64,000 bases of DNA from Ignavibacteria bacterium. Lineage in GTDB: Bacteria > Bacteroidota > Ignavibacteria > Kapaibacteriales > UBA961. The DNA is taken from the NCBI GenBank assembly GCA_016720145.1, contig JADJXV010000007.1, positions 103,426-167,425 on the forward strand, read 5' to 3'. Below are positions 1,840-24,567 of the stretch, piece by piece. Made by a program: the position numbers and the translations under genes. The notes under the pieces are model-generated. The model had not been told where the DNA came from and ran no database searches. It was given only the letters and a program-made list of their open reading frames with translations. Numbering within the stretch: position 1 is the first letter of the stretch; every line of letters starts with the position of its first letter.

Positions 1840-4800
1840 TTACTTCACAAGTATCATTTGCTTTGCTGTCACAAGTGTACCTACTTCTAATCGATACATA
1901 TACATTTCACTTCCGAGGTTGGATGCATCATCTCTTGTGAATGTTGCAGTATGATTACCGGCGTCCTGCATTTCACTCACGAGTGTTGCCACTTCTCTAC
2001 CGAGCATTGTAAATACTTTGAGGGTAACGACATCCGGCTTATCAATAGAATACTGAATCGTCGTCGAAGTGCTGAATGGATTCGGATAATTATCCGAAAG
2101 AGAGGATTGATTGCCGGCAATCGGACTCATCACCCCAAGCGGACTAAATCGTAAATCAGTCGAAAGTACAGGAGTCAGCTGATATCCACACACCAAATTA
2201 GCAGTTGCCTGACCGAGAACTCCTTCGAACGTAGCGAGCTTACTGTAAAACGGCATACCACCCATGCGTGTGTTTGTGTTCTTACCAATACGAATGACAA
2301 CCGTATTTGTCTTGTCTGATATGTCAGTATTTTGATAAATTTTTGGAGTTTGGAATACAACATCGCTATCCGAATCAACGGTTAGATTATTGACTCTGAT
2401 CATGCAGCTTTCGTACTGTTCGCCTGTGAGTGCAACTTGTACTAATGAAAGTACTGCAGATGCAGGCAGAGGATTAGCTCTTGACAATCGGAGAAAACCT
2501 ACTAAGTCAGTTGTATTAATTACTTTAAGGAAGTCGTGTTCAGAAATGCGACCTTCGATTCGTACTTTATCACCCATTGCTATTTCAGCATTTTGGACAT
2601 TCGAGTGGAATTGACCTGACACTTGGAAGAGTGTGAGTCCGCCGGTAGCATCTTGAATTCGCGTATAATCACCCATTGTTCGAGTTACAACTCCTTCGAC
2701 AATAACGAGAGTACCAATTGGCAAATCGCGTGCTGCTCGTATGGTATTGACACCTATCGTATCGATGCCTGTTCCGGTTACGGTGATTATGCTATTGCCT
2801 ACATTATGGTCGAAGTCTATATTAGCACTTACTTTACCTTGGACTTGTGGGGCAAAAGTAATAAAAAACTCTTGTGAAGCATTCGGAACAATCGTTCCGA
2901 TGATTGGTGTAATTGAATAGAACGGAGAACTTGAAGCGATATCTGATATAATCAAATCACTCACACCGGTGTTGGTCACATAGACGCTGAGCTGTTTTGT
3001 AGTTTTTACCCGAACATTTCCGAAATCGAGGTTCGATCTATTCACCGTGAACTTCGGAGAAAGGTCACTTCCTGAACTATTACCCGCTAAATAGAGAGTA
3101 TCTCTTGGGTTAGTTGCATTATGATGAAATGCTATATAGCCATTCTGCACGCTCATTGACAGAGGAGAGAAGTTCACATAAAACTTACGAGATGTGCCTG
3201 CCTCGACCACACCTGTACCAAGATCTATCGTATAAAATTTATTACTTGACTTCGCGCTCAAGATGATAAGATTGGCAGTACCTGAATTAGTGACTACGAT
3301 GCTATCTTTCTTGGTCGTGCCACTGACGACACTACCAAATACGAGGCTGAGAGGGTTAACGGAAAATGATGCAAAGACTGGATTACCAATTCCGGTACCG
3401 GTCACGTGTATTGAGTCTTTGGTAGTAGTAGAATTGACATTAAAACGAATCCAACCGTCTTGAATTCCTGATACTAACGGTGTAAAGGTAACATTGAATA
3501 TCCTCGAAGCACCCGGAGCAATCGTTGCATTGAGTGCTGTAAGTGTAAACGTAGTATTCGTGGATACAAAGCTTGAAATAATCAAATCCGCAGTGCCTGA
3601 ATTAGTCACGGTAACTGTTTCTGTTTTGGTTGTTCCATTGACGACATCTCCAAAGTTTACTTCCATCGGAGTGACGGCAAATTTTGATGAAATGCCCGTT
3701 CCACTCACAGTGATAGTATCTTTCGGATTCGCAGCATTATGCGTAAATACAATACTACCTGTTAGCAAGCCATCGGCTAAAGGTGCATACGTGAAGTAAT
3801 ATTTCAGCGTACCGCCGGGAATAATTGTTGCATTCGTTGGGGTTACGGCAAAGACTACATTACTACTCGTCACACTTGTGATCAGTAAATTTGATGTTCC
3901 GGTATTCGAGATTATGACTGAATCCGTCTTTTGTATTCCTTTACGTACATTTCCGAAATTCACAGAACTTACATTCGCTAAAAACTTTGGTGCGAGTCCA
4001 TTTCCACTGACCGATACAGTATCTTTTGGCTTGATTGCATTATGATTGAATATCAACTTACCCGCTTGAGCGCCGTCGGTTAATGGCGAATAGAGGATGT
4101 AAAATTTCATCGACGCGCCCGGTGCAATTGTTCCCGTAGCAGGAGTTACCGCAAAATATGAATTCGAGCTGGTGATGCTTGTCACGACGAGATTCGCAGA
4201 GCCGGAATTTGAAACAGTCACCGAGTCTTTTTTATTCAATCCGCTCACGACACTTCCGAAATTAATAGTAGAAGGTGTGACTGTTGCAATCGGCGAATTC
4301 CCGTTTCCATTGACTGCAATAGTATCCCTTGGCTTGGCAGCATTATGCGAAAATATAATATTGGAGGTTTGATACCCATTGGACAGAGGCGAATAGGTGA
4401 TCATAAATTGTTTTGTGCCGCCGGGTGTAATTGTACCACTAGTAGTATTGACGGAAAACACTGAGTTTGAACTCGTTACATTCGTGATGACCAAGTCTGC
4501 ACCACCTGTATTAGTCACAATAACCGTATCAATTTTACTTGTAAAGTTCGCTACGTTGCCATAGGTAACTTGATAATGATTTGCAGAAAAAATTGGTGAA
4601 GCGGTAGAAGTTGCCCTGACGGTAGTAACGCCTGATGCCATCGTCACCGCAGCCGAAAAAGCAAGTGCACGCCCGTCCATTGAAGCGCCTGTACCAAATG
4701 ATATAGACTGATCAGCCAAAATTGTTCCCTTGAATACTGAATAAGTACCTAAGGTCGCTGATGTACCTACCTGCCAAAAAATATTGGATGCCTGTGCTCC

Positions 4801-5379
4801 ACCTGCGAGTATAATTTTAATACCGCTGCCGAGGTTGAGCGAACTCCCAATCTGAAATATCCAGACGTCCGTTGCATTGCCGGTGAGCGTCACATCTGCT
4901 CCGGTGATATTTGCTGCGCCGGTGAATTTGTAGAGTCCGGGTGCGAGATTTAAGCCACCAATATTGCTACCGCCGGGATTAAGAAATGCACCTGTTGGTA
5001 CGGGAGTTCTATTGGCTGCTTCGGTGTAAGCTGTTGTCAAATCACTCTTTGCTGTTTGTAATAATGTAGAATTTATCACCGAACCTGACGGACCGGAAGC
5101 ATCGACGACATACAAAGTGCCGACTACATTCGAACCGTCAAAACCTGTAATATAGCTCCCTGCAGCCGGGCTGAGACCCACATTTCCGGTGATTGTTACC
5201 GGTGGTACTCCTGTGACGGTCGAGCCGGCAAGGATCACAAAATTACTGAGAGAAAGTAGATTCAAAGGTGCTATTCCTGCCACCATCGTTGTCGTCATCA
5301 TCGCTGCGAGGAGTATCACTCCAAGCATCCGAGCGAATTTGTCATACATAGTGTTTATGTATTTATTAGAAATTTTCAT
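1840..5379 (-). CDS. Giant T9SS-secreted surface protein: signal peptide, ice-binding-like (DUF3494) beta-helix domain, about 7 choice-of-anchor-D/ASH-like Ig repeats, C-terminal T9SS sorting domain
   Basis: The N-terminal block (...LYVVDASGPSGS...TAYTEAANRTP...DVWIFQIGSSLNLGSGIKIILAGGAQASNIFWQVGTSATLG...MDGRALAFSAAVTM) matches DUF3494 ice-binding-like proteins. About 80-aa repeats with NFGNV..G..K.DSV.V.N.G...L.I..... are choice-of-anchor D-like. The C-terminus (...LKVFTMLGREVATLV...YMYRLEVGTLVTAKQMILVK) is a T9SS C-terminal domain. Confidence 0.85.
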   Translation of the reverse strand: MKISNKYINTMYDKFARMLGVILLAAMMTTTMVAGIAPLNLLSLSNFVILAGSTVTGVPPVTITGNVGLSPAAGSYITGFDGSNVVGTLYVVDASGPSGSVINSTLLQTAKSDLTTAYTEAANRTPVPTGAFLNPGGSNIGGLNLAPGLYKFTGAANITGADVTLTGNATDVWIFQIGSSLNLGSGIKIILAGGAQASNIFWQVGTSATLGTYSVFKGTILADQSISFGTGASMDGRALAFSAAVTMASGVTTVRATSTASPIFSANHYQVTYGNVANFTSKIDTVIVTNTGGADLVITNVTSSNSVFSVNTTSGTITPGGTKQFMITYSPLSNGYQTSNIIFSHNAAKPRDTIAVNGNGNSPIATVTPSTINFGSVVSGLNKKDSVTVSNSGSANLVVTSITSSNSYFAVTPATGTIAPGASMKFYILYSPLTDGAQAGKLIFNHNAIKPKDTVSVSGNGLAPKFLANVSSVNFGNVRKGIQKTDSVIISNTGTSNLLITSVTSSNVVFAVTPTNATIIPGGTLKYYFTYAPLADGLLTGSIVFTHNAANPKDTITVSGTGISSKFAVTPMEVNFGDVVNGTTKTETVTVTNSGTADLIISSFVSTNTTFTLTALNATIAPGASRIFNVTFTPLVSGIQDGWIRFNVNSTTTKDSIHVTGTGIGNPVFASFSVNPLSLVFGSVVSGTTKKDSIVVTNSGTANLIILSAKSSNKFYTIDLGTGVVEAGTSRKFYVNFSPLSMSVQNGYIAFHHNATNPRDTLYLAGNSSGSDLSPKFTVNRSNLDFGNVRVKTTKQLSVYVTNTGVSDLIISDIASSSPFYSITPIIGTIVPNASQEFFITFAPQVQGKVSANIDFDHNVGNSIITVTGTGIDTIGVNTIRAARDLPIGTLVIVEGVVTRTMGDYTRIQDATGGLTLFQVSGQFHSNVQNAEIAMGDKVRIEGRISEHDFLKVINTTDLVGFLRLSRANPLPASAVLSLVQVALTGEQYESCMIRVNNLTVDSDSDVVFQTPKIYQNTDISDKTNTVVIRIGKNTNTRMGGMPFYSKLATFEGVLGQATANLVCGYQLTPVLSTDLRFSPLGVMSPIAGNQSSLSDNYPNPFSTSTTIQYSIDKPDVVTLKVFTMLGREVATLVSEMQDAGNHTATFTRDDASNLGSEMYMYRLEVGTLVTAKQMILVK

Positions 5380-5407
5380 TGTATAAACCTTTTATTTGCT
5401 GATGTAG

Positions 5408-5432
5408 TACTGCTTTCTTTCTGAAAGTTCAG
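5408..5432 (-). promoter_or_regulatory. Conserved leader/promoter motif ACTGAACTTTCA-N9-AGCAGT (minus-strand sense), about 30-50 nt upstream of the start codon
   Basis: Read on the minus strand, the motif ACTGAACTTTCA-N-AAGA-N-AGCAGT occurs at the same distance upstream of three minus-strand genes. The copies are at 5408-5432, 11331-11355 and 28175-28199. The geometry GAAC-N16-GT resembles an ECF-sigma -35/-10 pair. Confidence 0.4.
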
Positions 5433-5460
5433 TTTATTCGAAGTCGGTGTAAATGAAGTC

Positions 5461-5540
5461 AGATTATGTTAACCGCAATGTTCGCAGAGATGAGATCTTC
5501 TGAGTACTGTCTTTGCGAACGTTGCGGTTAATGCATTTGT
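5461..5540. repeat. Long inverted repeat (about 22-bp arms, about 30-nt loop) between the tandem giant paralogues
   Basis: ttaaccgcaatgttcgcagag ... ctttgcgaacgttgcggttaa. Confidence 0.6.
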
Positions 5541-5567
5541 TGATTTATTCGAGTAGTAGATTAAAAA

Positions 5568-5655
5568 AGACTTACGGAACGGAATGTAATGTAAAGTGAA
5601 AACGCCGAAATTTTCATAATACTATCCACATCAGCCATTCCGTAAGTTTTTATTT
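5568..5655 (-). terminator. Putative rho-independent terminator of the 1879-aa gene (large-loop hairpin followed by a T-run on the minus strand)
   Basis: cttacggaacggaatg ... cattccgtaag. The stem sits immediately 3' of the stop at 5661, and the minus-strand reading is followed by tctttttt. Confidence 0.45.
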
Positions 5656-5660
5656 TATAA

Positions 5661-8600
5661 TTACTTCACGAGTATCATTTGTTTGGTTGAGGAATAGGAT
5701 CCCACGTCCAAACGGTAGTAATATACTTCGCTGCCGAGGAGAGGAGAGCTGCTGTTGGCTGTGAAAGTCACCGTATGCATTCCTGCATTTTGAAACTCAT
5801 TCACCAAGGTCGCCACTTCTTTGCCGAGCAACGTAAATACTTTGAGATTAACCATATCCGATGTGCCAATGCTATACTGTATCGTCGTCGAAGCATTGAA
5901 TGGATTCGGATAATTGCTAGAGAGCGAATAGTCGTTTCCGGTCTGTTGATTGAATATACCTGTTGGCGCAAAACGTAAGTCGGTCGGAAGGACCGGAGTC
6001 AATTGATAGCCGCATGTAATACAGCTACTTGACTGACTAAGGACACCTTCAAAGGTAACGGGAGTTTCGTATATGTTCATTCCGTCCAAGTACGTATCAG
6101 CAGTCACACCGATTCGAATGACCACAGTATTTGCCTTGTCGGAATTATCAGTCACCTGATATGTCTTTGACTCTTGGAACGTAAGGTCACCATCTGAAGT
6201 CATATTCATATTATCTATTTTGATCAAACAGCTTTCATACTGTTCACCACGGAGGGCGATATCAGCAAGTGTCACTTTGAATGGAGTAGGTAATGGATTC
6301 GTACGTGACAAGATTGAGTGACTTGTTAAATTACTACTCGTTATAATCTTCAGATTATCCATCTCGGTAATTTTACCTGCTACACGTAGTTTATCACCCA
6401 TACTTACTTCAGGAGCAAGAGCTTGCAAACCGAATTCACCTGTTTCATGGAAGAGAGTCAGTCCACCGGTCGCATCTTGAATTCTGGTATAGCTGCCTAA
6501 AGTTCGCGTTACAACTCCTTCTGTTATAAAACTCGTACCGATAGGCAAATCACGTGCTTCTTTAATAGTAATCACACGCATCGAATCGACACCGTTTCCG
6601 GTTACATTGAGGATGCTTGATCCACCGTTATGAACGAAGGTAATCGTTGATGTTACACGACCTACTACTGTCGGCGAGAAGGTCACAAAGTATTCCTGAG
6701 AAGCACCTTGAAGTATTGTTCCTGTAGCAGGAGTCACTGTATAATGACTATCACCCGACACAATACTCGTGATGACCAAGTCACCGGTACCGGTGTTTGA
6801 TATCATCACACTTAATTGCTTTGATGTAGTAATTACCACATTGCCGAAGTCAAGACTTTGTGAGGCAAATGTCAATTTCGGCGACACTCCTACACCTCTA
6901 AGCGATATAATCGCAGGAGAATTAAGTCCATTATGTGTAATGGACATATTACCAGTTTGCAAGCCATCGACTATCGGGGAGAATGTCACATTATACTGTT
7001 GACTCATACCCGATGAGAGGGTTGTTCCTGATGGAGTGAAGGTAAACACACCATTTGAACTCGTTATATTGCTTATAGTTAAATCACCCAAGCCCGTATT
7101 GGTAATAGTCACCGGCAGTACTTTAGTAGTGCCTGTGCGTACATTCCCAAAATCGAGATTTTGTGTACTGATTGAAATCGATGAAAGTACTCCAGTACCT
7201 GTCACTGCAATTACATCCGTTGCATTTGATGCATTGTGATTAAAGGTAATACTGCCGGTATGGAATCCGGTCGAAAGTGGAGCGAATGTGACGGAGAATG
7301 TTTGAGAAGAGCCCGGTGCGATTGTTCCAATTGCAGGGGAAATACTAAACTGTGCATTCGTACTCGACACGCCGTTGATCACGAGGTCTGACGTACCGGC
7401 ATTGGTCACTATGACGGTCATTACTTTGCTCACACCTACGCCAACATTACCAAAATCAAGACGTTGCGTATTAGCTACAAACATTGGCGATACACCTGTG
7501 CCTGTCACAGCAATCATGTCGATTGCGTTCGTTGCGTTATGATTAAAGATAATCATACCCGATTGCGATCCGTTCGCCACGGGAGAGAACGTGACAAAGA
7601 ATTGCTGAGTTGCTCCCGGAGCAATTGTCCCTGAATTCGGTGAAACACTAAATACACCATTATTACTCGACACACCACTGATGATCAGATTATCTGTACC
7701 GGTATTGGTCACTGTAATCGAACGTACACTCGATGTAAAATTTCTCACATTGCCGAAGTCGAGAGATTGTACATTCGAGCTGAACTGAGGGGAAATTCCA
7801 GTACCAATCACTATAATCGTATCTAATGGCTTCGCACCATCGTGCGTAAAGATAATAGTACCTGTTCTCAGGCCATCAGCTTGCGGCGAGAAGGAAAGGT
7901 AGAATTTCTGTGAAGCACCCGGAGCAATGATTCCTAAAGTAGGTGTAGCTGTAAATACTACATTCGAACTCGTTACACCGCTTATAATTAGATTCGTTGT
8001 GCCGGTGTTGGTAATTGTCACAGAGTCCATTTTGCTTGTGCCTGTACGGACATTTCCAAAGTTCACTATAAGAGCGCTTGCAGAGAACATCGGCGATACA
8101 CCAACTCCTGTGAGTGTGACTGTATCTTTTGGCTTCGCTGCGTCATGATTAAACACTAATAAACTATTCTGCATACCATCTGTTAACGGCGAGAAAGTCA
8201 CATAGAATTTCATCGAAGCGCCCGGAGCGATTGTACTTGTAGCAGATGGAGTGACTGTATATCGTGGATTCGTACTCGTGACACTGCTAATAACTAGACT
8301 TGTTGTACCGCTATTGGTCACAGTGACGGAGTCCATTTTGGTTGTGCCATTTCTGACATTTCCAAAATTCAAACTCTGTGGATTCACGGTAAATAATGGA
8401 GATACTCCCGTACCTGACACTGTAATCGTGTCTTTAGTTTTGTCAGCATCTCCTGTAAAGATTATCAATCCTGACTGAGCGCCATCAACCAAAGGCGAGA
8501 ACGAAAGGTAGAATTTCTGTGAGGCACCGGGCGCAAGTGAGCCGGTAGTAGGAGTGACTGCGAAACGACCGTTCGTACTTGTTACATTACTTATAGTTAG

Positions 8601-11300
8601 AGTAGAAGTACCAGTGTTGGTAATTACCACTGAGTCCTGCTTGGTTGTACCATTGCGGACATTTCCGAAGCTCACACTTTGTACACTTTTCGCAAGTACC
8701 GGTGATACACCCGTTCCTGTGACACTAATCGTATCTCGAGGAATAAGCGCGTTGTGATTAAAGATAATTAGTCCTGTTTTCACACCATCGGTAAGTGGAG
8801 CAAATGTCACATAGAATTTTTGTGACATACCTTGGGTAATTGTTCCTGTAGCAGGAGTTACCATAAATAGTCCATTCGTACTTGTGATACTGCTTATTAC
8901 CAGATCCGAGGTTCCGGTATTCGATACCGTGACCGAATCCATTTTCGTCGTTCCATTGCGTACATTCCCGAAATTCAAATTCACGACATTTGCAGTAAAT
9001 TTTGGTGATACACCTGTACCACTGAGAGAAATTGAGTCTTTTGGATTGAGTGCATTATGATTGAAATAGACAAATCCCGACTGCGAGCCATCTGCAATTG
9101 GAGCGAATGTCACATAATACTTCTGTGATCCACCGGGGGTAATTGTTCCCGTAGTCGGTGTCACAGTATAGCGTGCATTCGATGTCGTCACACTGCTGAT
9201 GATGAGGTCAGATGTACCTGTATTGGTAATCGTAACCGAGTCGAGCTTGGTCGTACCATTTCTCACATTGCCGAAATTCAGACCTGCAAGGCCTGCACTG
9301 AAGAGAGGCGACACACCAGAACCTGATACAGAATAGATACTTGAAGGGATTTTTGCATTATGGTTAAATGTAAACGTACCTACTTGAAATCCATCGACCA
9401 ACGGTGCGAACGTGATATAATACTTCTGAGATGATCCCGGAGTAAGTGTTCCCGAAGTCGGTGTAATTGTAAATCGTGTATTCGAACCTGTAACGCTTGT
9501 AATCACCAAATTGGATGTTCCGGTATTGGTCACCGTGATAGAATCCATCTTGGTAGTCAGATTACGAACATTGCCGAAATCAAGTGAGACGGGAGCTGCC
9601 GTGAAGAACGGAGAAACTCCTGAGCCACTTACCATGATTGTATCTTTTGGCTTAGCGGCATTATGATTAAACACCACCGTCGCTGTTTGCGCGCCATCGA
9701 CTAAAGGAGCGAATATAAAGTAATACTTGAGTGTAGCACCCGGAGCAATTGTGCCTGTGGTCGGCGTGACCGTAAAGAGCATATTCGAGCTAACGACACT
9801 TGTAATTCTGAGCGTGTCTGTACCGGTATTCGTCACGGTTACGGAGTCTCTTTTCGTACTATCATTGCGTACATTACCGAAATTCAAAGTAGTTGGCACA
9901 GCAGAGAAGAATGGAGAAACACCTGTTCCCGACACATTAATCGTATCTTTTGGCTTGGCAGCATTGTGACTGAAAATGATTCTTCCTGATTGAGCACCAT
10001 CGGCAAGCGGAGCGTAGGTGATATAAAATTTCCTCGTTCCGTTAGGTGTAAGAGTGTCGGTAGTAGGAGTGACGGTATATCGTGCATTTGTGCTCGTCAC
10101 GCTTGTGATCATAAGATTCGCCGTGCCGGTATTGGTCACGGTAATCGAGTCAAGCTTCGTCTGATTATTCCGTACATTCCCAAAATTGATCGTATAAGTA
10201 TTGGATGAAAATATGGGAGAAACTCCTGTACCGGTAGCAACTACCGTATCCCGAGGTTTGGATGCATTATGGACAAAAATTATATTGGCATTTTGATTGC
10301 CGTTTCCTGTAGGTGTATAAGTAATATAGAATTGTTTAACTGAGTCAGGCATAATAGTCGCCGATGTCGATGACACGGTGAACTGTGTGTTTGAGCTTGT
10401 AACATTGGTAATCACTAGATTAGCACCACCGGTGTTTTTCACACGAATAGTGTCAATTTTGCTCGTAAAGTTAGCGACATTGCCAAAAGTCGCTGTTAAT
10501 GAATCAGCCGAAAACACAGGGAATAGAAATGCACGTGTTGAAACCACAGCAGACCCCATCGTAACAGCTGCTGAAAATGCCAACAATCTACCATCGATTG
10601 CCGCACCGGTACCGAGTGAAATTGACTGGTCTGCAAGGATACTTCCCTTGAAGACAGAATATGTACCAAGTGTAGCAGATGTACCGACTTGCCAGAATAT
10701 ATTTGCTGCCTGAGCGCCACCGGCAAGGATGATTTTGATACCGCTGCCCATGTTGAGCGAACTCCCAATCTGAAATATCCACACATCGGTTGCATTGCCG
10801 GTGAGTGTGAGGTCTGCGCCGGTAATATCTGCCGCGCCGGTGAATTTATAGAGTCCGGCAGCGAGATTCATGCCACCCATGTTGCCTGCGCCCGGATTGA
10901 GAAATGTGCCTGTCGGCACCGGTGTTCGATTCGCTGCATCGTTATAAGCAGTTGTCAAATCACCCTTTGCGGTCGTTAATAGACCCGCGTCAATCGTTGA
11001 GCCGGAAGGTCCTGAAGCATCAACTACATATAAAATTCCATCCACATTTGACCCGTCGAAACCTATCACAAAGCTACCGGCAGCAGGACTGAGTCCGATA
11101 TTACCGGTTATGGATACAGGTGGAATACCTGTAATCGTCGAACCTGCGATGATCATAAAATTGTCAAGAGAAAGGAGATTGAGAGGCGGAATTCCGGCAA
11201 ATGATGGCGTTGCTGCCATCATGATTGCTACAGAAAGCACACTCAATAAGCGAATGTACCGAGAGTACATACTCGCGACGAGTACGTTAAAAATTTTCAT
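5661..11300 (-). CDS. Giant T9SS-secreted surface protein, paralogue of 1840..5379: DUF3494 ice-binding-like domain, about 15 choice-of-anchor-D/ASH-like repeats, T9SS C-terminal domain
   Basis: The N-terminal 250 aa and C-terminal about 330 aa are nearly collinear with the downstream paralogue. The central NFGNVRNGTTK...VT.TNTGTS.L.I repeats are expanded (about 15 versus 7). It ends with the T9SS C-terminal domain (...VYYYRLDVGSYSSTKQMILVK). Confidence 0.85.
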   Translation of the reverse strand: MKIFNVLVASMYSRYIRLLSVLSVAIMMAATPSFAGIPPLNLLSLDNFMIIAGSTITGIPPVSITGNIGLSPAAGSFVIGFDGSNVDGILYVVDASGPSGSTIDAGLLTTAKGDLTTAYNDAANRTPVPTGTFLNPGAGNMGGMNLAAGLYKFTGAADITGADLTLTGNATDVWIFQIGSSLNMGSGIKIILAGGAQAANIFWQVGTSATLGTYSVFKGSILADQSISLGTGAAIDGRLLAFSAAVTMGSAVVSTRAFLFPVFSADSLTATFGNVANFTSKIDTIRVKNTGGANLVITNVTSSNTQFTVSSTSATIMPDSVKQFYITYTPTGNGNQNANIIFVHNASKPRDTVVATGTGVSPIFSSNTYTINFGNVRNNQTKLDSITVTNTGTANLMITSVTSTNARYTVTPTTDTLTPNGTRKFYITYAPLADGAQSGRIIFSHNAAKPKDTINVSGTGVSPFFSAVPTTLNFGNVRNDSTKRDSVTVTNTGTDTLRITSVVSSNMLFTVTPTTGTIAPGATLKYYFIFAPLVDGAQTATVVFNHNAAKPKDTIMVSGSGVSPFFTAAPVSLDFGNVRNLTTKMDSITVTNTGTSNLVITSVTGSNTRFTITPTSGTLTPGSSQKYYITFAPLVDGFQVGTFTFNHNAKIPSSIYSVSGSGVSPLFSAGLAGLNFGNVRNGTTKLDSVTITNTGTSDLIISSVTTSNARYTVTPTTGTITPGGSQKYYVTFAPIADGSQSGFVYFNHNALNPKDSISLSGTGVSPKFTANVVNLNFGNVRNGTTKMDSVTVSNTGTSDLVISSITSTNGLFMVTPATGTITQGMSQKFYVTFAPLTDGVKTGLIIFNHNALIPRDTISVTGTGVSPVLAKSVQSVSFGNVRNGTTKQDSVVITNTGTSTLTISNVTSTNGRFAVTPTTGSLAPGASQKFYLSFSPLVDGAQSGLIIFTGDADKTKDTITVSGTGVSPLFTVNPQSLNFGNVRNGTTKMDSVTVTNSGTTSLVISSVTSTNPRYTVTPSATSTIAPGASMKFYVTFSPLTDGMQNSLLVFNHDAAKPKDTVTLTGVGVSPMFSASALIVNFGNVRTGTSKMDSVTITNTGTTNLIISGVTSSNVVFTATPTLGIIAPGASQKFYLSFSPQADGLRTGTIIFTHDGAKPLDTIIVIGTGISPQFSSNVQSLDFGNVRNFTSSVRSITVTNTGTDNLIISGVSSNNGVFSVSPNSGTIAPGATQQFFVTFSPVANGSQSGMIIFNHNATNAIDMIAVTGTGVSPMFVANTQRLDFGNVGVGVSKVMTVIVTNAGTSDLVINGVSSTNAQFSISPAIGTIAPGSSQTFSVTFAPLSTGFHTGSITFNHNASNATDVIAVTGTGVLSSISISTQNLDFGNVRTGTTKVLPVTITNTGLGDLTISNITSSNGVFTFTPSGTTLSSGMSQQYNVTFSPIVDGLQTGNMSITHNGLNSPAIISLRGVGVSPKLTFASQSLDFGNVVITTSKQLSVMISNTGTGDLVITSIVSGDSHYTVTPATGTILQGASQEYFVTFSPTVVGRVTSTITFVHNGGSSILNVTGNGVDSMRVITIKEARDLPIGTSFITEGVVTRTLGSYTRIQDATGGLTLFHETGEFGLQALAPEVSMGDKLRVAGKITEMDNLKIITSSNLTSHSILSRTNPLPTPFKVTLADIALRGEQYESCLIKIDNMNMTSDGDLTFQESKTYQVTDNSDKANTVVIRIGVTADTYLDGMNIYETPVTFEGVLSQSSSCITCGYQLTPVLPTDLRFAPTGIFNQQTGNDYSLSSNYPNPFNASTTIQYSIGTSDMVNLKVFTLLGKEVATLVNEFQNAGMHTVTFTANSSSPLLGSEVYYYRLDVGSYSSTKQMILVK

Positions 11301-11330
11301 AGTAATTACCTGAAAGGATGATCGAATTCA

Positions 11331-11355
11331 AACTGCTCTCTTGATGAAAGTTCAG
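11331..11355 (-). promoter_or_regulatory. Second copy of the ACTGAACTTTCA...AGCAGT leader motif
   Basis: actgctctcttgatgaaagttcagt lies 31-55 nt upstream of the ATG at 11300. Confidence 0.4.
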
Positions 11356-11516
11356 TTTTTGAGGTCGGATGAGGATATGGAATGAACCATTATTGAGGAT
11401 GTGCGCTATCTTTGAGTTATGCAAAGAGTTACACTTGAGTTTGAAGGGAGTAGCCGTTCGTTTGACAGGGGCTGTTTTACTCTGTATCCCTTTGTTTGTG
11501 CTGTTTTTCTATAGCA

Positions 11517-11591
11517 CAAAATTAAGGCAAGAGTGTCCCGAGTATGTTACGTAACCTTAGGTATTACTTACATGATTCACATGTGAGTTGT
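11517..11591 (-). promoter_or_regulatory. Candidate promoter: TAATTTTG -7 box plus a conserved upstream 50-nt motif (TGTGAATCATGTAAG.AATAC...TTACGTAACATAC), shared with the OmpA gene upstream region
   Basis: The minus-strand TAATTTTG at 11517-11524 matches the Bacteroidetes -7 consensus TAnnTTTG. Exactly 17 nt upstream lies a motif nearly identical to 28408-28447, which shows the same spacing to its own TAATTTTG at 28383-28390. Confidence 0.45.
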
Positions 11592-12125
11592 CTTCGTGGG
11601 GGCACTTGGTGAATGGCACGCTGATGACGCTGATTTTTATGATTGAAGAAAATGGATATAGTGGTGTATCGCTTGTGTGAGGTGTAGAATTTTGAGCCGG
11701 CGAATTGCATTCAATGATGTCAACTCAAGAATTCGGCATTTGCTTGATGCGTAGAGGCAAGCGCAGCATGACAAACTGTTTACCTCACCCTGAGTTATCA
11801 AGTGGCTGCAGCCTGCCCCTATCAAAAAGCAATGACACAGACTATAATACGAACCCTAAGAACCCACACCCTCCCCTCTCCCAAGAGAGGGAACTAGTCA
11901 GAAAATCAATTACTTACAAACCAAAGTCCCCTCTCGGGAGGGGATTTAGGGGTGGGTTAAGCGCTGGATAAGATAAACAACCTTCTTCCAAAAGAAACCT
12001 ATGTAATAATTGTGTCATTAACAGGGAGTCGTAGGGTTCAATTACATACCTATTTTTTCCTTAAGCTGACAGCATTGGAATTGCATTCGCCCTTACAGTA
12101 TGTCTATGATTATAGCCGCAAGTCT

Positions 12126-12557
12126 TTACATCCGTTCCATATACCAATTTAGTTCCTTTTCCATTTTCTTGTAGCGGAAGATGCTGGTAATGATTTTTTG
12201 CAAGCGAACGAATGCTGTCTCACTTTTGACTACATAGTCAAATGCTCGATGATGCATGCAATTTATTGCTACGTCAATTTTATCTTGAGATGACAGCATA
12301 ATCACCGGAATATCAGGATTATATGCTTTAATCTTGTCTAAGGTTTCTATACCGTTCATAGCGAATTTGTCTATACCATCGAGATGGTAATCGAGGATAA
12401 TCACATCCGGAGATCGTGACAAATTCTCCATGCACTTCTCACCGGTCGGATAGGTCTCAATGACAAAATCAGCATGCTCAAGAAATTCGATTTCTAGTAA
12501 TTTTAAGAATACTGCATCATCATCGACAAGGAATATTTTAATCTTTTCTGTGTTCAT
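12126..12557 (-). CDS. Single-domain response regulator (CheY-like receiver)
   Basis: IKIFLVDDDAVFLKLLEIEF...DVIILDYHLDG...IPVIMLSSQDKIDVAINCMHHRAFDYVVK. It overlaps the upstream kinase gene by 4 nt (ATGA). Confidence 0.85.
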   Translation of the reverse strand: MNTEKIKIFLVDDDAVFLKLLEIEFLEHADFVIETYPTGEKCMENLSRSPDVIILDYHLDGIDKFAMNGIETLDKIKAYNPDIPVIMLSSQDKIDVAINCMHHRAFDYVVKSETAFVRLQKIITSIFRYKKMEKELNWYMERM

Positions 12558-15256
12558 CGTTTCGTGTTTTTTATAGTGTTAAATTCCTCTTCCAATTCTC
12601 TACATGCTTGATCGCAAATGAGTTCTAGCTGTAGAACCAATTCATGAATCCCTTCTGTTTGCCGTTGAGTGCTGGCATATTCTTGTATTTTCTTTGCCAT
12701 ATTTTCGAAGTCCTCACTAATCCCCATAATCGCAAAAGACGGTATCATTTTGTGTACAGCCGAGTAAAGTGTATTCCAGTCTTTATCCTGAAAGCTCTGC
12801 TTCATCGAGATAATCAGCGTTGGCGTCTGCTCTAAATACAGCGAAATCATTTCCATCATGAGTGTTGGATTGGACTTGGTACGATTGAGGAGATACGCTA
12901 GGTCAATACACCGCTGTTTTTTCGTTTCGACAAACAACTTTTCTTTTACTTCAATGAGCGACATTGGTTTTTTGACTAACCCAATGATTTTACTATATAA
13001 TATTCGTTCATCGACCGGCTTTGCTATATAATCGTTCATCCCGACTGCCTTACATTTTGCCAGATCGACCGTTGTCACATCTGCAGTGAGTGCAATAATC
13101 GGGATCTTGGAATTCATCGTGTTGCGAATATACTGCGTCGCTTCAAAACCATTCATTTCAGGCATTTGCAAGTCCATGAGAATAATGTCGTAGGTTTTGG
13201 AATGGAGCTTTTCAATCGCAATTTTCCCGTTGGCTGCTATGTCTCGTTCAAATCCAAAATCGTCTAGCAATGTCTTCATCAGTAATTGATTGAGAGCGAT
13301 ATCTTCTACCACAAGTACCTTTATATTCTTGATATCGTCATCAAGACTGAGTACTATTTCTTCAAGCTCTGCCTGCTCTATTGTCTTTTGAAAGGTGAGA
13401 GTAAAGCTAAAAGTAGAACCCTCTCCGAGCTTGCTTTTGACCCGGATACTGCCGCCCTGCGACTCGACTAATTGCTTGACAATTGCGAGTCCGAGACCGG
13501 TTCCGCCATACAACCGAGAAGTGCCGCTCGATGCCTGCTGAAAATTCTCAAAAATCTTGGTAATCTTGTCCTTCGGAATACCGATGCCGGTATCTTTGAC
13601 CGCAAATTCTACGGTGACATTTTCATCAGTTTCACTTATTAATTTAACACTTATGGTGATTTTACCGGTGTTGGAAAATTTCACAGCATTGCTCACAAGG
13701 TTCAGGATAATCTGATGTAATCGCACCGGATCACCTAAAAGGAATTCCGGAATAGTATTGTCGTAAACAATTTCCTGATCTAAGTTTTTTTCCTGAATTT
13801 TTGTTTCGAAAAGATGTACCATCGCCGAAAGCGACGCTTCCATTTTAAAAGGAATTTTCTCAAATGTCATCTTGCCGGCATCTACTTTCGCTAGATCGAG
13901 AATATCATTAATAAGCACTATTAGCGAGTCACCACTCATTTTAATAGCAGTCAAGTATTCTTTTTGTTTGGCACTGAGGTCGGTCTTGAGCAACACCTTG
14001 GTAAATCCTATAATTGCATTCATTGGTGTACGAATTTCGTGGCTCATATTCGAGAGGAATTGCTGCTTTGCTTTTACTGCTTCCTCGGCTTTGATCTTGG
14101 CTTCCTCGGCGAGCATCGTCGCAAGCTCAGCAAATACTTTTGCTTCAATGAGTTCCTTCTCGTTCCTTTTCTGGTCGGTAATATCACGAGCGACAATCAC
14201 CGCACCAAGCACATTCCCGCGGTCATCTTTATAGACCGAACCGTTAAAGAGTACATCGGTGAGCTCTCCATCGATAATCGTAAGAGGGTAATCAGCGACA
14301 AATCCCTTAGCAAAGACTTCTTTATATACTTCTGATGCTCTGTCTGAATCCGTAAAATAATCCTTAAAATCACTATTGCGCAGCTTTTCCCGCGATACAC
14401 CGGTTACTTTGACCATTGCCTCATTCATATCGGTGATTTTCCCATCGGTGCTGATAGTGACAAGAGGATCGCGACTTGCTTCTATCAAGCTTAGAGAGTA
14501 TTGTGAAAGAAGTTTTTTGGCAGTAATGTCCGAACGGATCGACACAAATTGATAGACTTCACCTTGTTCATTCTTGAATGGTACAATCGTAGAGTCCACC
14601 CAATAGTTGGTACCATCTTTTGCTTTGTTTTTAATTTCACCTCGCCAAATTTTTCCGGTGCAAATAGTATCCCATAATTCCCGCATAAACTCTTTAGGAT
14701 GAAATCCAGAATTGACTAACCTATGATCTTGCCCTATTAACTCTTCCCTTTTGTACTTTGAAATTTTACAAAAATTGTCATTTGCGTAGTTAATAATTCC
14801 ATTTTTATCAGTGATAGCTACTATCGACGACTCCTCAAGTGCTAGTTTATACCCGGAAATTTCATTCAAACTCTTCTCGAGATTCGCTTCTACCTTTTTT
14901 TGTTTTGTCACGTCTCGCGCTGCTGCAAATACACCGAGAACTTTGCCGTTGTCATCTTTATAAACTGATGCATTATAAAGCACATCCGTTAATTGACCGT
15001 TGACATGCCTCACCGTCAGCGGATAGTCGGCCACGAAGCCCTTCTCAAATACTTGTCGATATCCTATCTCCGCTTTCTCGGGTTCGGTAAAATACATGCT
15101 GAAGTTCGTCCCGATAAGCTTATCCCGACGAATACCGGTAACTTTAATCGACGCCTCATTGACGTCGGTGATTTTCCCTTCGGCACTGATCGTCACGAGT
15201 GGGTCCAAGCTCGCCTCTATCAGACTACGAGAATATTGTGAAGCTAATTGAACCAA
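12554..15256 (-). CDS. Hybrid sensor histidine kinase: 3 PAS/PAC, HisKA, HATPase_c, receiver and HPt domains
   Basis: Three PAS/PAC units (e.g. ...FVADYPLTVRHVNGQLTDVLYNASVYKDDNGKVLGVFAAARDVT) are followed by SNMSHEIRTPMNAIIGF (H-box). The ATPase region carries DTGIGIP...GGTGLGLAIVKQLV (G-boxes), then a REC domain (VLVVEDIALNQLL...ILMDLQMPEMNGFE) and a C-terminal HPt-like segment. The ORF-track start (TTG at 15256) is probably not the true start. See the next feature. Confidence 0.9.
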   Translation of the reverse strand: MVQLASQYSRSLIEASLDPLVTISAEGKITDVNEASIKVTGIRRDKLIGTNFSMYFTEPEKAEIGYRQVFEKGFVADYPLTVRHVNGQLTDVLYNASVYKDDNGKVLGVFAAARDVTKQKKVEANLEKSLNEISGYKLALEESSIVAITDKNGIINYANDNFCKISKYKREELIGQDHRLVNSGFHPKEFMRELWDTICTGKIWRGEIKNKAKDGTNYWVDSTIVPFKNEQGEVYQFVSIRSDITAKKLLSQYSLSLIEASRDPLVTISTDGKITDMNEAMVKVTGVSREKLRNSDFKDYFTDSDRASEVYKEVFAKGFVADYPLTIIDGELTDVLFNGSVYKDDRGNVLGAVIVARDITDQKRNEKELIEAKVFAELATMLAEEAKIKAEEAVKAKQQFLSNMSHEIRTPMNAIIGFTKVLLKTDLSAKQKEYLTAIKMSGDSLIVLINDILDLAKVDAGKMTFEKIPFKMEASLSAMVHLFETKIQEKNLDQEIVYDNTIPEFLLGDPVRLHQIILNLVSNAVKFSNTGKITISVKLISETDENVTVEFAVKDTGIGIPKDKITKIFENFQQASSGTSRLYGGTGLGLAIVKQLVESQGGSIRVKSKLGEGSTFSFTLTFQKTIEQAELEEIVLSLDDDIKNIKVLVVEDIALNQLLMKTLLDDFGFERDIAANGKIAIEKLHSKTYDIILMDLQMPEMNGFEATQYIRNTMNSKIPIIALTADVTTVDLAKCKAVGMNDYIAKPVDERILYSKIIGLVKKPMSLIEVKEKLFVETKKQRCIDLAYLLNRTKSNPTLMMEMISLYLEQTPTLIISMKQSFQDKDWNTLYSAVHKMIPSFAIMGISEDFENMAKKIQEYASTQRQTEGIHELVLQLELICDQACRELEEEFNTIKNTKR

Positions 15257-16008
15257 ATTATTAGACGCTTCTAATTCCTGCCGGACAGATTCGCGGATCT
15301 CGGTTTGTTTGTTTTGATAGTCAAGTTCGCGGTCGGCGATGACAAGCTCTGCGGCGCGCTTGTCTTTCTCTTCATTTTGGAAGGCAAGTTCTTTATTTGC
15401 AACGAGTAATTTAGCTGTGAGCTTCCCTTTTTCTTCATCCTGATACGCGAGCTCGATATTAGCAAGACCCAGCTCAGCGGCGCGCTTGCCTTTCTCTTCA
15501 TTTTGGAAGGCAAGTTCTTTATTAGCTACGACTAACTCAGCAGCACGCTTGCTTTTTTCTTCGTCTTGATACGCAAGCTCAATATTAGCAAGTCCCAGCT
15601 CAGCAGCGCGTTTGCCTTTTTCCTCGTCTTGATAGGCGAGTTCGATATTCGCAAGACCAAGCTCGGCGGCGCGCTTGCCTTTTTCCTCGTCCTGAAAAGC
15701 CAGCTCAATATTTGCGAGCCCAAGTTCAGCAGCTCGTTTGCCTTTTCCTCATCCTGAAACGCGAGTTCGATATTGGCTATACCAAGCTCCGTGGCTCTTT
15801 TTTCTTTTTCTCCATCCTGAAACTCAAGCTCTTTGTTGGCTATTCCGAGTTCGGCAGCACGCTTCCGCCGCTCAATGTTTTGAGTGTCAATTTCCTTGCG
15901 AACGCTAGCCAATTCTGCAATCAGTGTTTGATTTTCAGCTATTTGAATATCAAGTTCACTTTGAAGGCGGACTATATCATCGACAGATGGGTTAGTTTGG
16001 TATGCCAT
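15257..16008 (-). CDS. N-terminal extension of the hybrid kinase: coiled-coil plus about 10 tandem 21-aa repeats (ELGIANIELAYQDEEKGKRAA), separated from the kinase frame by a 1-nt homopolymer indel near 15745
   Basis: The ATG at 16008 opens MAYQTNPSVDDIVRLQSELDIQIAENQTLIAELASVRKEIDTQNIERRKRAAELGIANKELEFQ... Restoring one base in the T4 run at 15744-15747 (T5 in the other repeat copies) puts the reading in the kinase frame. That frame has no stop from about 15745 to 15256 and reads ...EEKGKRAAELGLANIELAYQDEEK...LVANKELAFQNEEKDKRAAELVIADRELDYQNKQTEIRESVRQELEASNNLVQLASQYS..., which continues into the kinase. It also contains no ATG, GTG or TTG before 15256. The DNA has a 63-bp tandem periodicity. 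Confidence 0.6.
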
Positions 16009-16045
16009 ACGAAATTGCCAACATAAACATAATAAATATAAATAC

Positions 16046-16633
16046 TTAAGAAGCTATCATCTGTTCAGTCGTCTCATCCGATGTACCTTTTCCCCCGACA
16101 TCTTCGAGCGGACTCCGACGTTTGTCTTTGAGCTGCTTGAAGTGGGAGGGAGACAGTCCGGTCACTTTTTTGAATTGATTCGACAGATGTGCCACGCTAC
16201 TATAGTTCATTTTCCAGGCGATTTCCGAAATACTGAGCTCGCCGTACATAATTAATTCCTTGATTCGCTCGACTTTATGAGCGATGACGAAATGTTCGAT
16301 CGTCGTACCTTGTACCTCGGAGAAGAGATTAGCGAGGTAGGTATAGTCGTGATTGAGCTTTTCATGTAATAATTGTGAAAAATTCACTTTGACTAATTCC
16401 TCGGTATGATGCACCATTTCAATGATCACATTCTTGATTTTTTCGATGAGAATGGACTTTTTATCGTCCATAAGTTCTAATCCTGACTCAAGCAGGGCTG
16501 CTTTCAATGTTTCGGATTGACTTGCTGTAAGGGTTTCCATCACCTCGACTTCACCTAATTCCACAACGATAAAATGGAGCCCGAGTTTTCTCAGCTCTTC
16601 TTTCACCAGAATTTTACATCGGTTACTGACCAT
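16046..16633 (-). CDS. AraC-family transcriptional regulator (HTH_18 C-terminal domain)
   Basis: Twin HTH motifs: ...YTYLANLFSEVQGTTIEHFVIAHKVERIKELIMYGELSISEIAWKMNYSSVAHLSNQFKKVTGLSPSHFK. The likely start is the ATG at 16633 (MVSNRCKILVKEELRKLGLHFIVVELGEVEV). The ORF-track ORF extends to 16723. Confidence 0.75.
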   Translation of the reverse strand: MVSNRCKILVKEELRKLGLHFIVVELGEVEVMETLTASQSETLKAALLESGLELMDDKKSILIEKIKNVIIEMVHHTEELVKVNFSQLLHEKLNHDYTYLANLFSEVQGTTIEHFVIAHKVERIKELIMYGELSISEIAWKMNYSSVAHLSNQFKKVTGLSPSHFKQLKDKRRSPLEDVGGKGTSDETTEQMIAS

Positions 16634-16970
16634 GTATTTAATGTGTAATTTCAAGCTGAGTTCCCTTACTGTAGATGTGGGTAGATGTGAAGGTAGGACT
16701 CGTAGTATTAGCCACACGAACAAAAGTAATATACCACATATTATGCATAGTGAGTAAGTTTATTTATTTTCAAATACTTTAATTAGAGTGATCTATTGTT
16801 GTGTTGTTATAAAACAAGCATAATGGTCAGGTAGCTTCTTCTCTTTTTCAAATAAATTGATTGGATATAACTACATTCTAACCACGATAAGTATATGGAC
16901 TCCCGGTCGATTGATTATCACCGTAGAATTCGTTCATCACAGCGAAAAACAACTTTTACCATGACAATAC

Positions 16971-21388: not shown

Positions 21389-22270
21389 TTATTTAGTTAT
21401 AGTTGTATCGGTTTTATTCTGAAGTCCCTGCTCGAGAATTGTATCTGTTTTGACCTGATTACTCAGCTCAAGGTGTTCGTTTGCCCACTGTTCGTACGTG
21501 AATATCTGCATATACGACTTGGGTTTAATACCCATACTTCCCGTAAAAGGATGATCAAGAAGAATAATCGTAAAGAGAATCATACCGATAAAAGCGCCTA
21601 AGAGGGTAGTGAGCGCAATGTGCATACGCTTGTGTTCGATATCGAGCAAGAGAGCGAAAATAATTGTAATCACCGCACCTAAAATTATCGGCAACCAAAT
21701 TGGTGGTGGTATCTCCGTTTCCATCGAAGTGACGCGTAGTCCGCGAAACGTAGATAACTCATTCAAATGGCTGAACATTTCAGCAACCAACTGCACCTGA
21801 AATTGATTCTTGGGATTGAGATGTTCCAACTTATCAAATACTCTGCTGAAGGATTCAAGCGTGAGCCGGCTAAGCTTCATACGCTCCATATTTGGGAATT
21901 CATCATCAATCACATTATACACAAAATCCAAATAGACCTTCATCAGTTGCTTCGACTCAAGCGTGTCGGGGTAGAATTTAATATCTCGATACAAGCCCAA
22001 AGCCGAACTCCCCTCTTTACTCGCATTGGCACGTGTTTCGTTTAATTGATCCCACACGACAAATACGACAAAACTGAGCAGTAGCGCATAAAAACTCGCA
22101 ATAGCTAAAAATAAAAAACCCGTCACTTCATTATGCGAACGGAGAATCTCAACTTTTACAAACTTTCGAAAAAGCATCGTCAGCAGCGCCGCAAGCCCCG
22201 AAACGAACACGACCATCAATATAAATAGTAAGACAGGATGTATTTGAAGCAAATAGTACGAGATAGCCAT
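21389..22270 (-). CDS. Membrane protein, DUF4239-like (two N-terminal and two C-terminal TM helices flanking a soluble domain)
   Basis: N-terminal LLFILMVVFVSGLAALLTMLF / FLFLAIASFYALLLSFVVFVVW and C-terminal IWLPIILGAVITIIFALLL / LLGAFIGMILFTIILL. Confidence 0.45.
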   Translation of the reverse strand: MAISYYLLQIHPVLLFILMVVFVSGLAALLTMLFRKFVKVEILRSHNEVTGFLFLAIASFYALLLSFVVFVVWDQLNETRANASKEGSSALGLYRDIKFYPDTLESKQLMKVYLDFVYNVIDDEFPNMERMKLSRLTLESFSRVFDKLEHLNPKNQFQVQLVAEMFSHLNELSTFRGLRVTSMETEIPPPIWLPIILGAVITIIFALLLDIEHKRMHIALTTLLGAFIGMILFTIILLDHPFTGSMGIKPKSYMQIFTYEQWANEHLELSNQVKTDTILEQGLQNKTDTTITK

Positions 22271-22618
22271 AATTGAAGTACCAATGTTAAGTTAATATTT
22301 GATAACCGTATAATTTATTAGTTAGTTAATTAATGAGATGTCGCACTATAGATTACTCCAATGCCGAACGAGAATTTCTATGTAATCGAGCTATTTGTGG
22401 AGCACAGAGAGAGCAGGTATCACTCCCATCCCGGCACAGTGCGTTACATTGTAATTGTAAGGTATATAATTCAAATGAATATAAGATGTTCTGTATTATT
22501 CGCATTCTTTTGAACTGGCAAATCACTCATCGATTATACTTTGTTTATCTTCCATCTCGATTGATTACTACATCGTATAAACGTAAGGAGTACTACCGAA
22601 CACCGTAAGCAAAGTCTC

Positions 22619-22963: not shown

Positions 22964-23045
22964 AATAGATGGTAGTAATTCTTCAGTATCGCTGTTGCCC
23001 GATTGTAGAAAAATAACATTCTACAGTATTTAATTTGCGTTAATT

Positions 23046-24563: not shown

Positions 24564-24567
24564 AATA

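Follow-up and report, generated by a model that had tools for sequence, protein, structure and literature searches.

A conserved 25-nt motif ahead of envelope protein genes in Ignavibacteria and Kapabacteria is a candidate cis-acting RNA stem-loop

Three minus-strand genes for envelope proteins in the 64-kb stretch of Ignavibacteria DNA analysed here (the window) are each preceded by a 25-nt motif that, on balance, probably encodes a small RNA stem-loop with a bulge, a previously undescribed cis-acting element for post-transcriptional control of major envelope proteins. A regulatory RNA element is the most likely reading of the sequences that we compared, rather than an ECF-sigma promoter; both readings had been put forward in the original prediction, made from the DNA of the window. 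That prediction placed the motif upstream of three outer-surface protein genes, which the Pfam assignments uphold, two of the genes encoding DUF3494 proteins and one an OMP beta-barrel/OmpA protein. The 657-aa OmpA-like protein is 100% identical to an NCBI protein (P0121) of an Ignavibacteria bacterium MAG. The genes and the motif copies are as follows.

1840-5379, minus strand: gene behind copy 1, 1179 aa, with Ice_binding/DUF3494 domain, Ig-like repeats and a weak match to the T9SS C-terminal sorting domain (Pfam)
5661-11300, minus strand: gene behind copy 2, 1879 aa, with Ice_binding/DUF3494 domain and 13 Ig-like repeats (Pfam)
26171-28144, minus strand: gene behind copy 3, 657 aa, with N-terminal OMP beta-barrel and C-terminal OmpA domain (Pfam)
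5409-5433, minus strand: hairpin motif copy 1, ACTGAACTTTCAGAAAGAAAGCAGT, exact match, RNAfold -5.2 kcal/mol, 48.0 bits with covariance model R1
11332-11356, minus strand: hairpin motif copy 2, ACTGAACTTTCATCAAGAGAGCAGT, exact match, folded with RNAfold, R1 52.7 bits
28175-28199, minus strand: hairpin motif copy 3, ACTGAACTTTCAACAAGAAAGCAGT, exact match, folded with RNAfold, R1 43.7 bits

The pattern ACTGAACTTTCA-N7-AGCAGT has exactly three perfect matches in the 64 kb, all on the minus strand; about 0.1 matches would be expected with three or fewer mismatches, and none of 100 shuffled sequences reached three. The original prediction had the 25-nt span right but the spacing wrong, as ACTGAACTTTCA-N9-AGCAGT has no match in the window even when three mismatches are allowed, and of its coordinates 28175-28199 stands, whereas 5408-5432 and 11331-11355 are off by one base. 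Twenty-two of the 25 positions are identical among the three copies (consensus ACTGAACTTTCA NN AAGA R AGCAGT) and the flanks are unrelated. Of the three that vary, two are in the loop and the third is an A or G that faces a U, where a G-U wobble would be tolerated. In copies 1, 2 and 3, respectively, 29, 31 and 30 nt separate the end of the motif from the ATG, and the centre of the motif lies ~43 nt upstream of the ATG, close to the earlier figure of about 45 nt. Searching the 64 kb with R1, which was built from 25 sites, found nothing beyond the three copies, the next match scoring 13.6 bits compared with 43.7-52.7 bits. Four further genes for giant T9SS cargo proteins and two for small OMP beta-barrels, all in the window, are without the element.

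The motif is an imperfect palindrome, ACTG-AA-CTTTC-(A N N A N)-GARAG-CAGT, and RNAfold predicts the same bulged hairpin, ((((..(((((.....))))))))), in all three copies. From the outside in, the predicted structure has an outer stem of 4 bp (ACUG/CAGU), a bulge of two A's, an inner stem of 5-6 bp, CUUUC(A)/(U)GARAG, and a loop of 3-5 nt that is rich in A. The window stems are AU-rich, with energies of -5.2 to -5.3 kcal/mol and z-scores against shuffles that are modest (-1.5 to -2.1). Overall, the predicted hairpin is weak, at -5 to -8 kcal/mol. When eight complete DUF3494 leaders of ~215 nt were folded together with RNAalifold, the motif hairpin was the only common structure, with no further consensus structure outside it. 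The predicted hairpin leaves the Shine-Dalgarno element and the AUG uncovered, and an RNA thermometer or cold switch for 'ice-binding' proteins was rejected because the hairpin spares both. A second, companion hairpin of non-conserved sequence is predicted just upstream of copy 3 and, at the corresponding position, in most relatives, where it is often followed by a short (U)CGAAA-like linker. Compared with shuffled sequences, the 45 nt upstream of the motif fold more stably, with a mean z of -1.41 that falls below -1 in 13 of 25 sites, and a distal control has -0.62. Among the window copies, the companion hairpin is convincing at copy 3 only.

11305-11311, minus strand: AGGTAAT, Shine-Dalgarno-like, 4 nt before the ATG, invariant in DUF3494 leaders elsewhere
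28214-28239, minus strand: companion hairpin just upstream of copy 3, AGAAGUGAUGCAAUUUGCUCGCUUCU (RNAfold; z = -2.8 versus shuffles)

Is the motif peculiar to this genome? An exact-pattern scan over one genome per species (185,579 species), with a pattern that fixed the stem bases, returned 15 loci, a total that is unremarkable given that about 17 would be expected by chance for 18 fixed bases. What stands out is their distribution. Ten of these loci, with 11 sites, are from Ignavibacteria, Kapabacteria or FCB-group MAGs, and the other five are in unrelated taxa or inside ORFs. Some of these MAGs carry a Hyphomicrobiales label yet have matching genes. Of the 11 lineage sites, ten are in sense orientation with 25-39 nt to the ATG of the downstream gene, which is a DUF3494 gene in L003, L006, L007 (two sites), L013 and L015 and the orthologue of the OmpA-like gene in L001, L004, L005 and L008. 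Locus L012 has a DUF3494-type leader and then a TSP3-repeat/OmpA-domain gene that starts 63 nt downstream. OmpA-like genes were also retrieved by protein similarity only, from 18 metagenome loci and 8 contig look-ups, which gave 23 distinct loci with a usable upstream region. A clear element is found in 14 of these 23 and a degenerate one in two (L021 and L044); it is absent from seven (L019, L027, L039, L040, L042, L043 and L045), which are more divergent or GC-richer, and because such relatives are without it, the element is, on the genomes compared, lineage-restricted.

Altogether there are ~28 sites in ~25 loci, all in sense orientation and 24-39 nt before an ATG, except for the one at 63 nt, and the families concerned are DUF3494 surface proteins, the 650-aa OmpA-like protein and one TSP3-OmpA protein. 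Applied to 367 kb and 137 kb of fetched loci, R1 found sites only ahead of the same gene families. The co-regulated set of surface and outer-membrane genes that was originally proposed is supported, as the element stands before the same families across many genomes. The closest OmpA-like orthologues, with 83-84% identity at the protein level, retain 23-24 of the 25 motif bases; the sequence on either side, the putative -10 region included, is no longer alike. A scan of viral contigs gave 12 partial matches of 17-22 bits, no more than chance would give, and carriage of the element by phage was rejected on that account. Rfam 15 at the gathering threshold found only a group II intron in the whole window, and in E-value mode it gave no match at the motif in L007, L013, L015 or window positions 11250-11560. 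Full-text literature searches on Ignavibacteria RNA motifs and promoters yielded no description of such an element. To judge from these searches, the element would lie outside any described family and would be a lineage-specific, cis-regulatory leader hairpin.

The occurrence, position and conservation of the motif are matters of observation, and so are the substitutions that preserve its pairing. Across 21 distinct aligned sequences, the nine proposed pairs form in 96.3% of cells, a figure to be read with the fact that many of the aligned sequences had been collected with the stem bases fixed in the search pattern. In 500 column shuffles, neither this pairing nor the observed covariation score was ever reached, and in slid-register controls pairing occurs in only 35-64% of cells. 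The G-U wobbles are confined to the sense strand. Three pairs vary as follows among the 21 distinct sequences.

Pair 4-22: G-C in 16, A-U in 2, G-U in 2, U-A in 1
Pair 2-24: C-G in 19, A-U in 2
Pair 9-19: U-G in 10, U-A in 8, C-G in 1

Double-sided changes affect two pairs, in five cells, with eight further pair types, and come from few lineages, to which L034 and L041 are to be added. The base pairs thus appear to be backed by compensatory and wobble substitutions, with a modest number of independent events. The individual cases are instructive. In L023, L025 and L030, positions C2, G4, C22 and G24 have become A, A, U and U, such that both pairs are kept. The closest DUF3494 relative by protein similarity, L034, has an outer stem CUAC/GUAG that is different but complementary, with the inner stem unchanged (z = -3.0). 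In L041, a self-complementary insertion of 11 nt in the loop extends the helix, and the flanking CUCUCA/UGAGAG is kept. The best-conserved positions are A5, A6, C7, T8, T10, C11, A12, A15, G17, A18, A20, G21 and A23.

How do these substitutions bear on the reading of the motif as a promoter? ECF sigma factors have consensus sequences such as GGAACTT-N16-TCAAA for sigmaE and GGAA(C/T)-N16-18-GTT for sigmaH/sigmaR. The motif could accordingly be taken as a proximal ECF-type promoter with (T)G-AAC-TTT as -35 element, a 16-nt spacer and GT(T) as -10 element, driving an envelope regulon with a 5' UTR of ~20 nt, possibly besides a distal TAnnTTTG promoter. On their face, the window copies fit this reading. 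Group IV sigma factors use -35 elements built from a G region, AAC and a T-tract (PMC1540707), and TGAACTTT, present in all three copies, fits this architecture; A5, A6, C7, T8 and T10 show little or no variation in the 21 sequences, a GT follows after 16 nt in all window copies and most relatives, the ATG comes at a constant distance and the genes concerned encode envelope proteins. Of the GAAC-16 nt-GTT arrangement noted originally, GAAC-16 nt-GT is present in every window copy, and the final T is found in copies 2 and 3 and is replaced by A in copy 1.

The relatives fit poorly. Among the 14 elements retrieved through the protein, at least eight of the nine pairs form in all 14, but both GAAC and GT are retained in only six. 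The substitutions in L023, L025 and L030 remove both G's that an ECF factor would read, G4 and G24, together with their pairing partners, so that the G's of the boxes co-vary with bases 18-22 nt away, which a promoter leaves unexplained, as it does the other substitutions that preserve complementarity. The G of GAAC is A or T in these three loci and L031, the AAC is altered in L028, L034, L041 and L021, and the GT is lost in L017 (GA), L024 (GG) and L023, L025 and L030 (TT). The insertion in L041 puts 11 extra bases between the boxes and would leave 27 nt between 'GAAC' and 'GT'. The putative spacer is at least as conserved as the boxes, with T10, C11, A12, A15, G17, A18, A20, G21 and A23 at least 90% conserved over three gene families and more than 20 genomes, and sigma promoters do not require that. 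Two features that define ECF promoters are missing across the loci compared: a -10 element, CGT or GTT, that is always 16-17 nt away, and a spacer whose sequence varies from one regulon member to another. An ECF sigma/anti-sigma pair is usually autoregulated through its own motif; no cognate sigma/anti-sigma gene lies nearby, and neither a Sigma70_r2 or r4 match nor an ECF sigma gene was found among the window ORFs scanned. We therefore regard an ECF promoter at the motif as unlikely, notwithstanding the fit of the window copies at face value. A promoter of the sigma-70 type at the motif was rejected, as a scan for TTGACA-16-18 nt-TATAAT with at least 9 of 12 bases found 0 sites in 5300-5700, 11250-12150 and 28100-28700.

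The symmetry of the motif could also be that of DNA, an inverted repeat CTTTCA-N3-TGARAG bound by a dimeric factor, perhaps the neighbouring AraC-type or two-component regulator, that serves as roadblock or proximal activator. In many copies, the inner repeat comes close to a perfect 6-3-6 palindrome with free central positions. An AraC/HTH_18 gene, a PAS hybrid histidine kinase gene and a gene for a 143-aa receiver protein adjoin the window DUF3494 genes, as they do in L046, and AraC-type genes adjoin the OmpA-like gene in L040, L044 and L045. An operator would nevertheless be hard to reconcile with the AA bulge, which shifts the outer ACTG/CAGT 2 bp off the symmetry axis, where a homodimer would not read it, or with the A/G at position 19 and the G4-T22 combination, both of which break the symmetry of the DNA and keep the pairing of the RNA. 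Nor would it account for the unrelated but complementary outer arms of L034, the self-pairing insert of L041 or an orientation relative to the gene that is always the same. We consider the operator improbable and return to the RNA stem-loop.

Where, then, would the stem-loop lie in its transcript? The original prediction claimed TAATTTTG boxes upstream of two copies, and these were seen on the gene strand ahead of copies 2 and 3; there is no such box upstream of copy 1. TAnnTTTG is the -7 box of Bacteroidota promoters (e.g., PMC7366714 and PMC9723704). The sequence is not enriched in the window as a whole (59 observed, 53 expected), and we give it weight only because its position is conserved in alignments: in 13 sites it precedes the motif by 163-195 nt, an alignment of nine DUF3494 leaders shows no variation at its T, A and TTTG, and the box of copy 3 is also present in the orthologous loci L017, L026 and L018. 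Farther upstream is a block that reads TGTGAATCATGTAAG...GTTAYGTAACA before the window genes of copies 2 and 3 and at 13 other places in 12 loci, and that is likely, from this conservation, to be a transcription-factor site.

11517-11524, minus strand: TAATTTTG box, Bacteroidota-type -7, 168 nt from box start to copy 2 start, predicting a leader of ~210 nt
28383-28390, minus strand: TAATTTTG box, 191 nt from box start to copy 3 start, predicting a leader of ~235 nt
11545-11581, minus strand: upstream block TGTGAATCATGTAAG...GTTACGTAACA, candidate transcription-factor site, containing a 15-mer found exactly twice in the window
28411-28447, minus strand: second copy of the upstream block, ahead of the OmpA-like gene (15-mer match; conservation)
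5469-5531, no strand assigned: inverted repeat, arms of 22 nt, in the intergenic region of the DUF3494 pair, with its end 35 nt upstream of copy 1
5563-5654, no strand assigned: inverted repeat with 20-nt arms and A/T-run flanks right after the stop codon of the gene at 5661-11300, terminator-like

In two other genomes, the promoter block and the hairpin are far apart. The block lies 0.8-1.6 kb upstream of the hairpin in L023 and L032, with same-strand ORFs between them: a small ORF and a 112-aa Cupin_2 gene, plus a 153-aa ORF in L032. Because the block precedes these ORFs, the hairpin would be intercistronic in both loci. L038 has the same gene order, without a detected promoter block, and in all three loci the hairpin sits between the cupin gene and the OmpA-like gene. 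As far as these alignments go, the spacing of the element to the start codon is maintained and that to the promoter is not, and this is the behaviour of a post-transcriptional signal. The post-transcriptional leader element that was one of the two original readings is supported through its conservation with the gene families, its position downstream of the conserved box and the compensatory changes that keep the hairpin.

Copy 1 poses a particular problem, as it lies behind the two large inverted repeats and has no promoter box; L008 similarly has a canonical terminator ~70 nt upstream of the motif. In neither is there a recognisable promoter between the upstream terminator-like hairpin and the motif, a point in favour of the ECF reading, and it follows that the gene needs either read-through or processing, or a promoter at or near the motif. 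Could the hairpin itself be an attenuator or terminator that leaks, or a site of processing by an endonuclease, and so separate the leader or the upstream cistrons from the envelope mRNA without any specific factor? U-rich tails after the stem, e.g., CAGUUUUAAUUUUUUUU in L006 and GAAGUUUUAAUUUUUUU in L031, would suit such a role, as would the place of the hairpin between cistrons in L023, L032 and L038 and the second hairpin that often precedes it. These tails are found only in some low-GC relatives, and the window copies, with their weak, AU-rich stems, have no U-run; an intrinsic terminator, with a G+C-rich stem and a U-run, was rejected for all three, and an intrinsic-terminator scan of the three upstream regions found none at the motif copies. 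A passive structure of this kind would, moreover, need no strict sequence conservation of bulge, loop and stem, and we give it little credence.

Three further candidates were tried and rejected. A uORF ending at the TGA inside ACTGAAC is found upstream of copy 2 only, and its frame is not conserved in L007. An ANTAR dual hairpin would have hexaloops, which the element lacks, and the 143-aa receiver protein encoded next to it is too short to accommodate an ANTAR domain. A relic of the duplication of the DUF3494 gene is contradicted by flanks that differ and by the presence of the element at the OmpA-like gene and in other genomes.

We infer transcription of the motif solely from the promoter-like boxes, and its action as RNA and the kind of molecule that binds it from sequence comparison. 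The stem-loop would be transcribed within the mRNA, 24-39 nt upstream of the start codons of envelope genes; in some loci it would stand at the end of a leader of ~200-235 nt that begins at the conserved TAnnTTTG promoter, and in other genomes between the cupin and OmpA-like genes of an operon. Because structure and sequence are both conserved (the AA of the bulge, A12 and A15 of the loop, and the stem bases), a specific docking factor can be postulated, and the stem-loop would be the docking site of this trans-acting factor, an RNA-binding protein or a ribonuclease. The factor would set the stability and/or the translation of envelope mRNAs and so couple the output of envelope proteins. A more far-reaching proposal, which we advance tentatively and hold to be doubtful, is that Ignavibacteria and Kapabacteria have a dedicated regulon at the RNA level, with the hairpin as its address tag, in which one RNA-binding factor would read the AA bulge and the A-rich loop and co-ordinate the peptidoglycan-anchored major OMP with the T9SS-secreted DUF3494 giants, layered on a shared stress-type promoter module.

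The Ignavibacteria branch beside the Bacteroidia and Chlorobia and have T9SS-secreted surface proteins, and to our knowledge almost nothing is known of gene regulation in them and their relatives. An element common to a probable major outer membrane anchor and to probable surface-layer or adhesin giants offers a handle on how the envelope is balanced. It is short enough to suit compensatory mutagenesis and use as bait for the binding factor, and together with the promoter block (TGTGAAT..GTAACA and TAnnTTTG) it defines a small regulon, for which any genome of the group can be scanned. It also carries a caution: the presence of GAAC-N16-GT upstream of envelope genes is insufficient for calling an ECF promoter. 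What likens the motif to ECF promoters is the TGAACTT-N..-GTT of the window copies, with 16 nt from GAAC to GT, and the envelope targets, and what sets it apart is the conserved spacer, the co-varying G's and the broken spacing of L041.

The RNA stem-loop can be compared with several known systems. The E. coli ompA 5' UTR has stabilising stem-loops, and S-layer genes have long, structured leaders. As in these, the stem-loop would belong to the leader of a very abundant outer membrane or surface protein mRNA, upstream of an AU-rich stretch and the ribosome binding site, with the Shine-Dalgarno element and AUG free. However, the ompA stabiliser acts as a 5'-terminal structure with little sequence requirement, whereas the motif hairpin is predicted to follow the start of the transcript by 160-190 nt, or to separate two cistrons, and is conserved in both sequence and pairing, common to unrelated genes and without sequence similarity to the stabiliser. 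The targets of LoaP-type NusG paralogues, of ANTAR proteins and of CsrA/RsmA are likewise short, sequence-specific leader hairpins, often with a second hairpin, in a small set of transcripts; the motif differs from them in having no ANTAR hexaloops, no GGA loop, no adjacent NusG paralogue and no Rfam match. Intercistronic hairpins of the puf, pap and malEFG type resemble the element in L023, L032 and L038, where it is directly upstream of a highly expressed distal cistron, but the motif is also found in monocistronic leaders and its sequence is conserved across genera and gene families. In Proteobacteria, sigmaE and small RNAs control omp mRNAs, and the RNA regulon proposed here would be a protein-based functional analogue of that control.

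The first DUF3494 gene of the tandem pair (5661-11300) and the OmpA-like gene (26171-28144) share a promoter module in the window, laid out as TGTGAATCATGTAAG...GTTAYGTAACA followed about 20 nt on by a TAnnTTTG box of the Bacteroidota -7 type.

Elements of the promoter module
11545-11581, minus strand: upstream block, ahead of the first DUF3494 gene
28411-28447, minus strand: upstream block, ahead of the OmpA-like gene
11517-11524 and 28383-28390, minus strand: TAATTTTG box

The module is also conserved at 13 other places in 12 loci outside the window, and in two related loci from other genomes (L023 and L032) it stands at the head of an operon in which a small ORF and a Cupin_2 gene precede the ompA-like gene. 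It is likely that the module is a site bound by a dedicated transcription factor. In another related locus, L012, a DUF3494-type leader with promoter module, hairpin and AGGTAATT is found at 758-860 with ACG where ATG would be expected, and continues into a TSP3-repeat/OmpA-domain gene 63 nt past the hairpin. The DUF3494-type leader appears to have been recombined there onto a different envelope gene. The nearest DUF3494 relative among those found through protein similarity, L034 (10001-15052), is called as two ORFs of 224 and 1450 aa with 24 nt between them; a genuine split is one explanation, a frameshift or assembly error the other.

The tandem DUF3494 genes are separated by a 280-nt gap that holds two large inverted repeats.

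Inverted repeats of the DUF3494 gap
5563-5654: 20-nt arms, A and T runs on the flanks, directly 3' of the stop codon
5469-5531: 22-nt arms, ending 35 nt before hairpin copy 1

The first is terminator-like, resembling a bidirectional terminator. The gap has two occurrences of CGAATAAA: one directly precedes the motif, and the other, near 5544-5551, is about 110 nt upstream of copy 1.

Four further giant secreted proteins are encoded in the window, and two of the three with DUF7948 and SBBP carry a T9SS C-terminal domain.

Other giant secreted protein genes
34913-38878, minus strand: Ig-like repeats and a cohesin domain
40595-43933, 51952-56976 and 58673-63745, plus strand: DUF7948, SBBP and Ig-like repeats

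Neither the hairpin nor the promoter module accompanies any of these four genes, and the hairpin element is therefore not a general signal for T9SS cargo. Elsewhere in the window, an intergenic tandem repeat (32060-32761; 2.4 copies of a 288-bp unit, 97% identity) lies between 31180-31572 and an NFACT-family gene (32868-34487). A group II intron occupies 46351-48299 on the minus strand (Rfam RF02005, 114.7 bits; RF00029, 56 bits); its reverse-transcriptase/maturase frame is in pieces (GIIM, 46516-47070; RVT_1, 46976-47419), so that the encoded protein looks degraded.

The OmpA-like gene is surrounded (21389-31023) by stress-type genes encoding bestrophin-like, HMBD, ferritin/Dps, alpha/beta hydrolase, SnoaL and DUF2383 proteins. 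A comparable set (ferritin, SnoaL, YceI, DUF2383 and bestrophin-like) follows its orthologue in the related locus L038, which suggests that the neighbourhood is a conserved one, of stress or stationary-phase type.

What might regulate these genes? Three candidate regulator genes lie upstream of the DUF3494 genes.

Candidate regulator genes
16046-16723, minus strand: AraC/HTH_18 regulator
12554-15256, minus strand: PAS hybrid histidine kinase
12126-12557, minus strand: stand-alone receiver protein, 143 aa

All three are candidate regulators of the DUF3494/OmpA-like gene set. AraC-type genes adjoin the OmpA-like gene in three related loci (L040, L044 and L045), and the order of AraC/HTH_18, hybrid kinase and receiver genes at 12126-16723 is conserved in L046 (2605-5605), from the RIFOXYC2_FULL_35_21 MAG.
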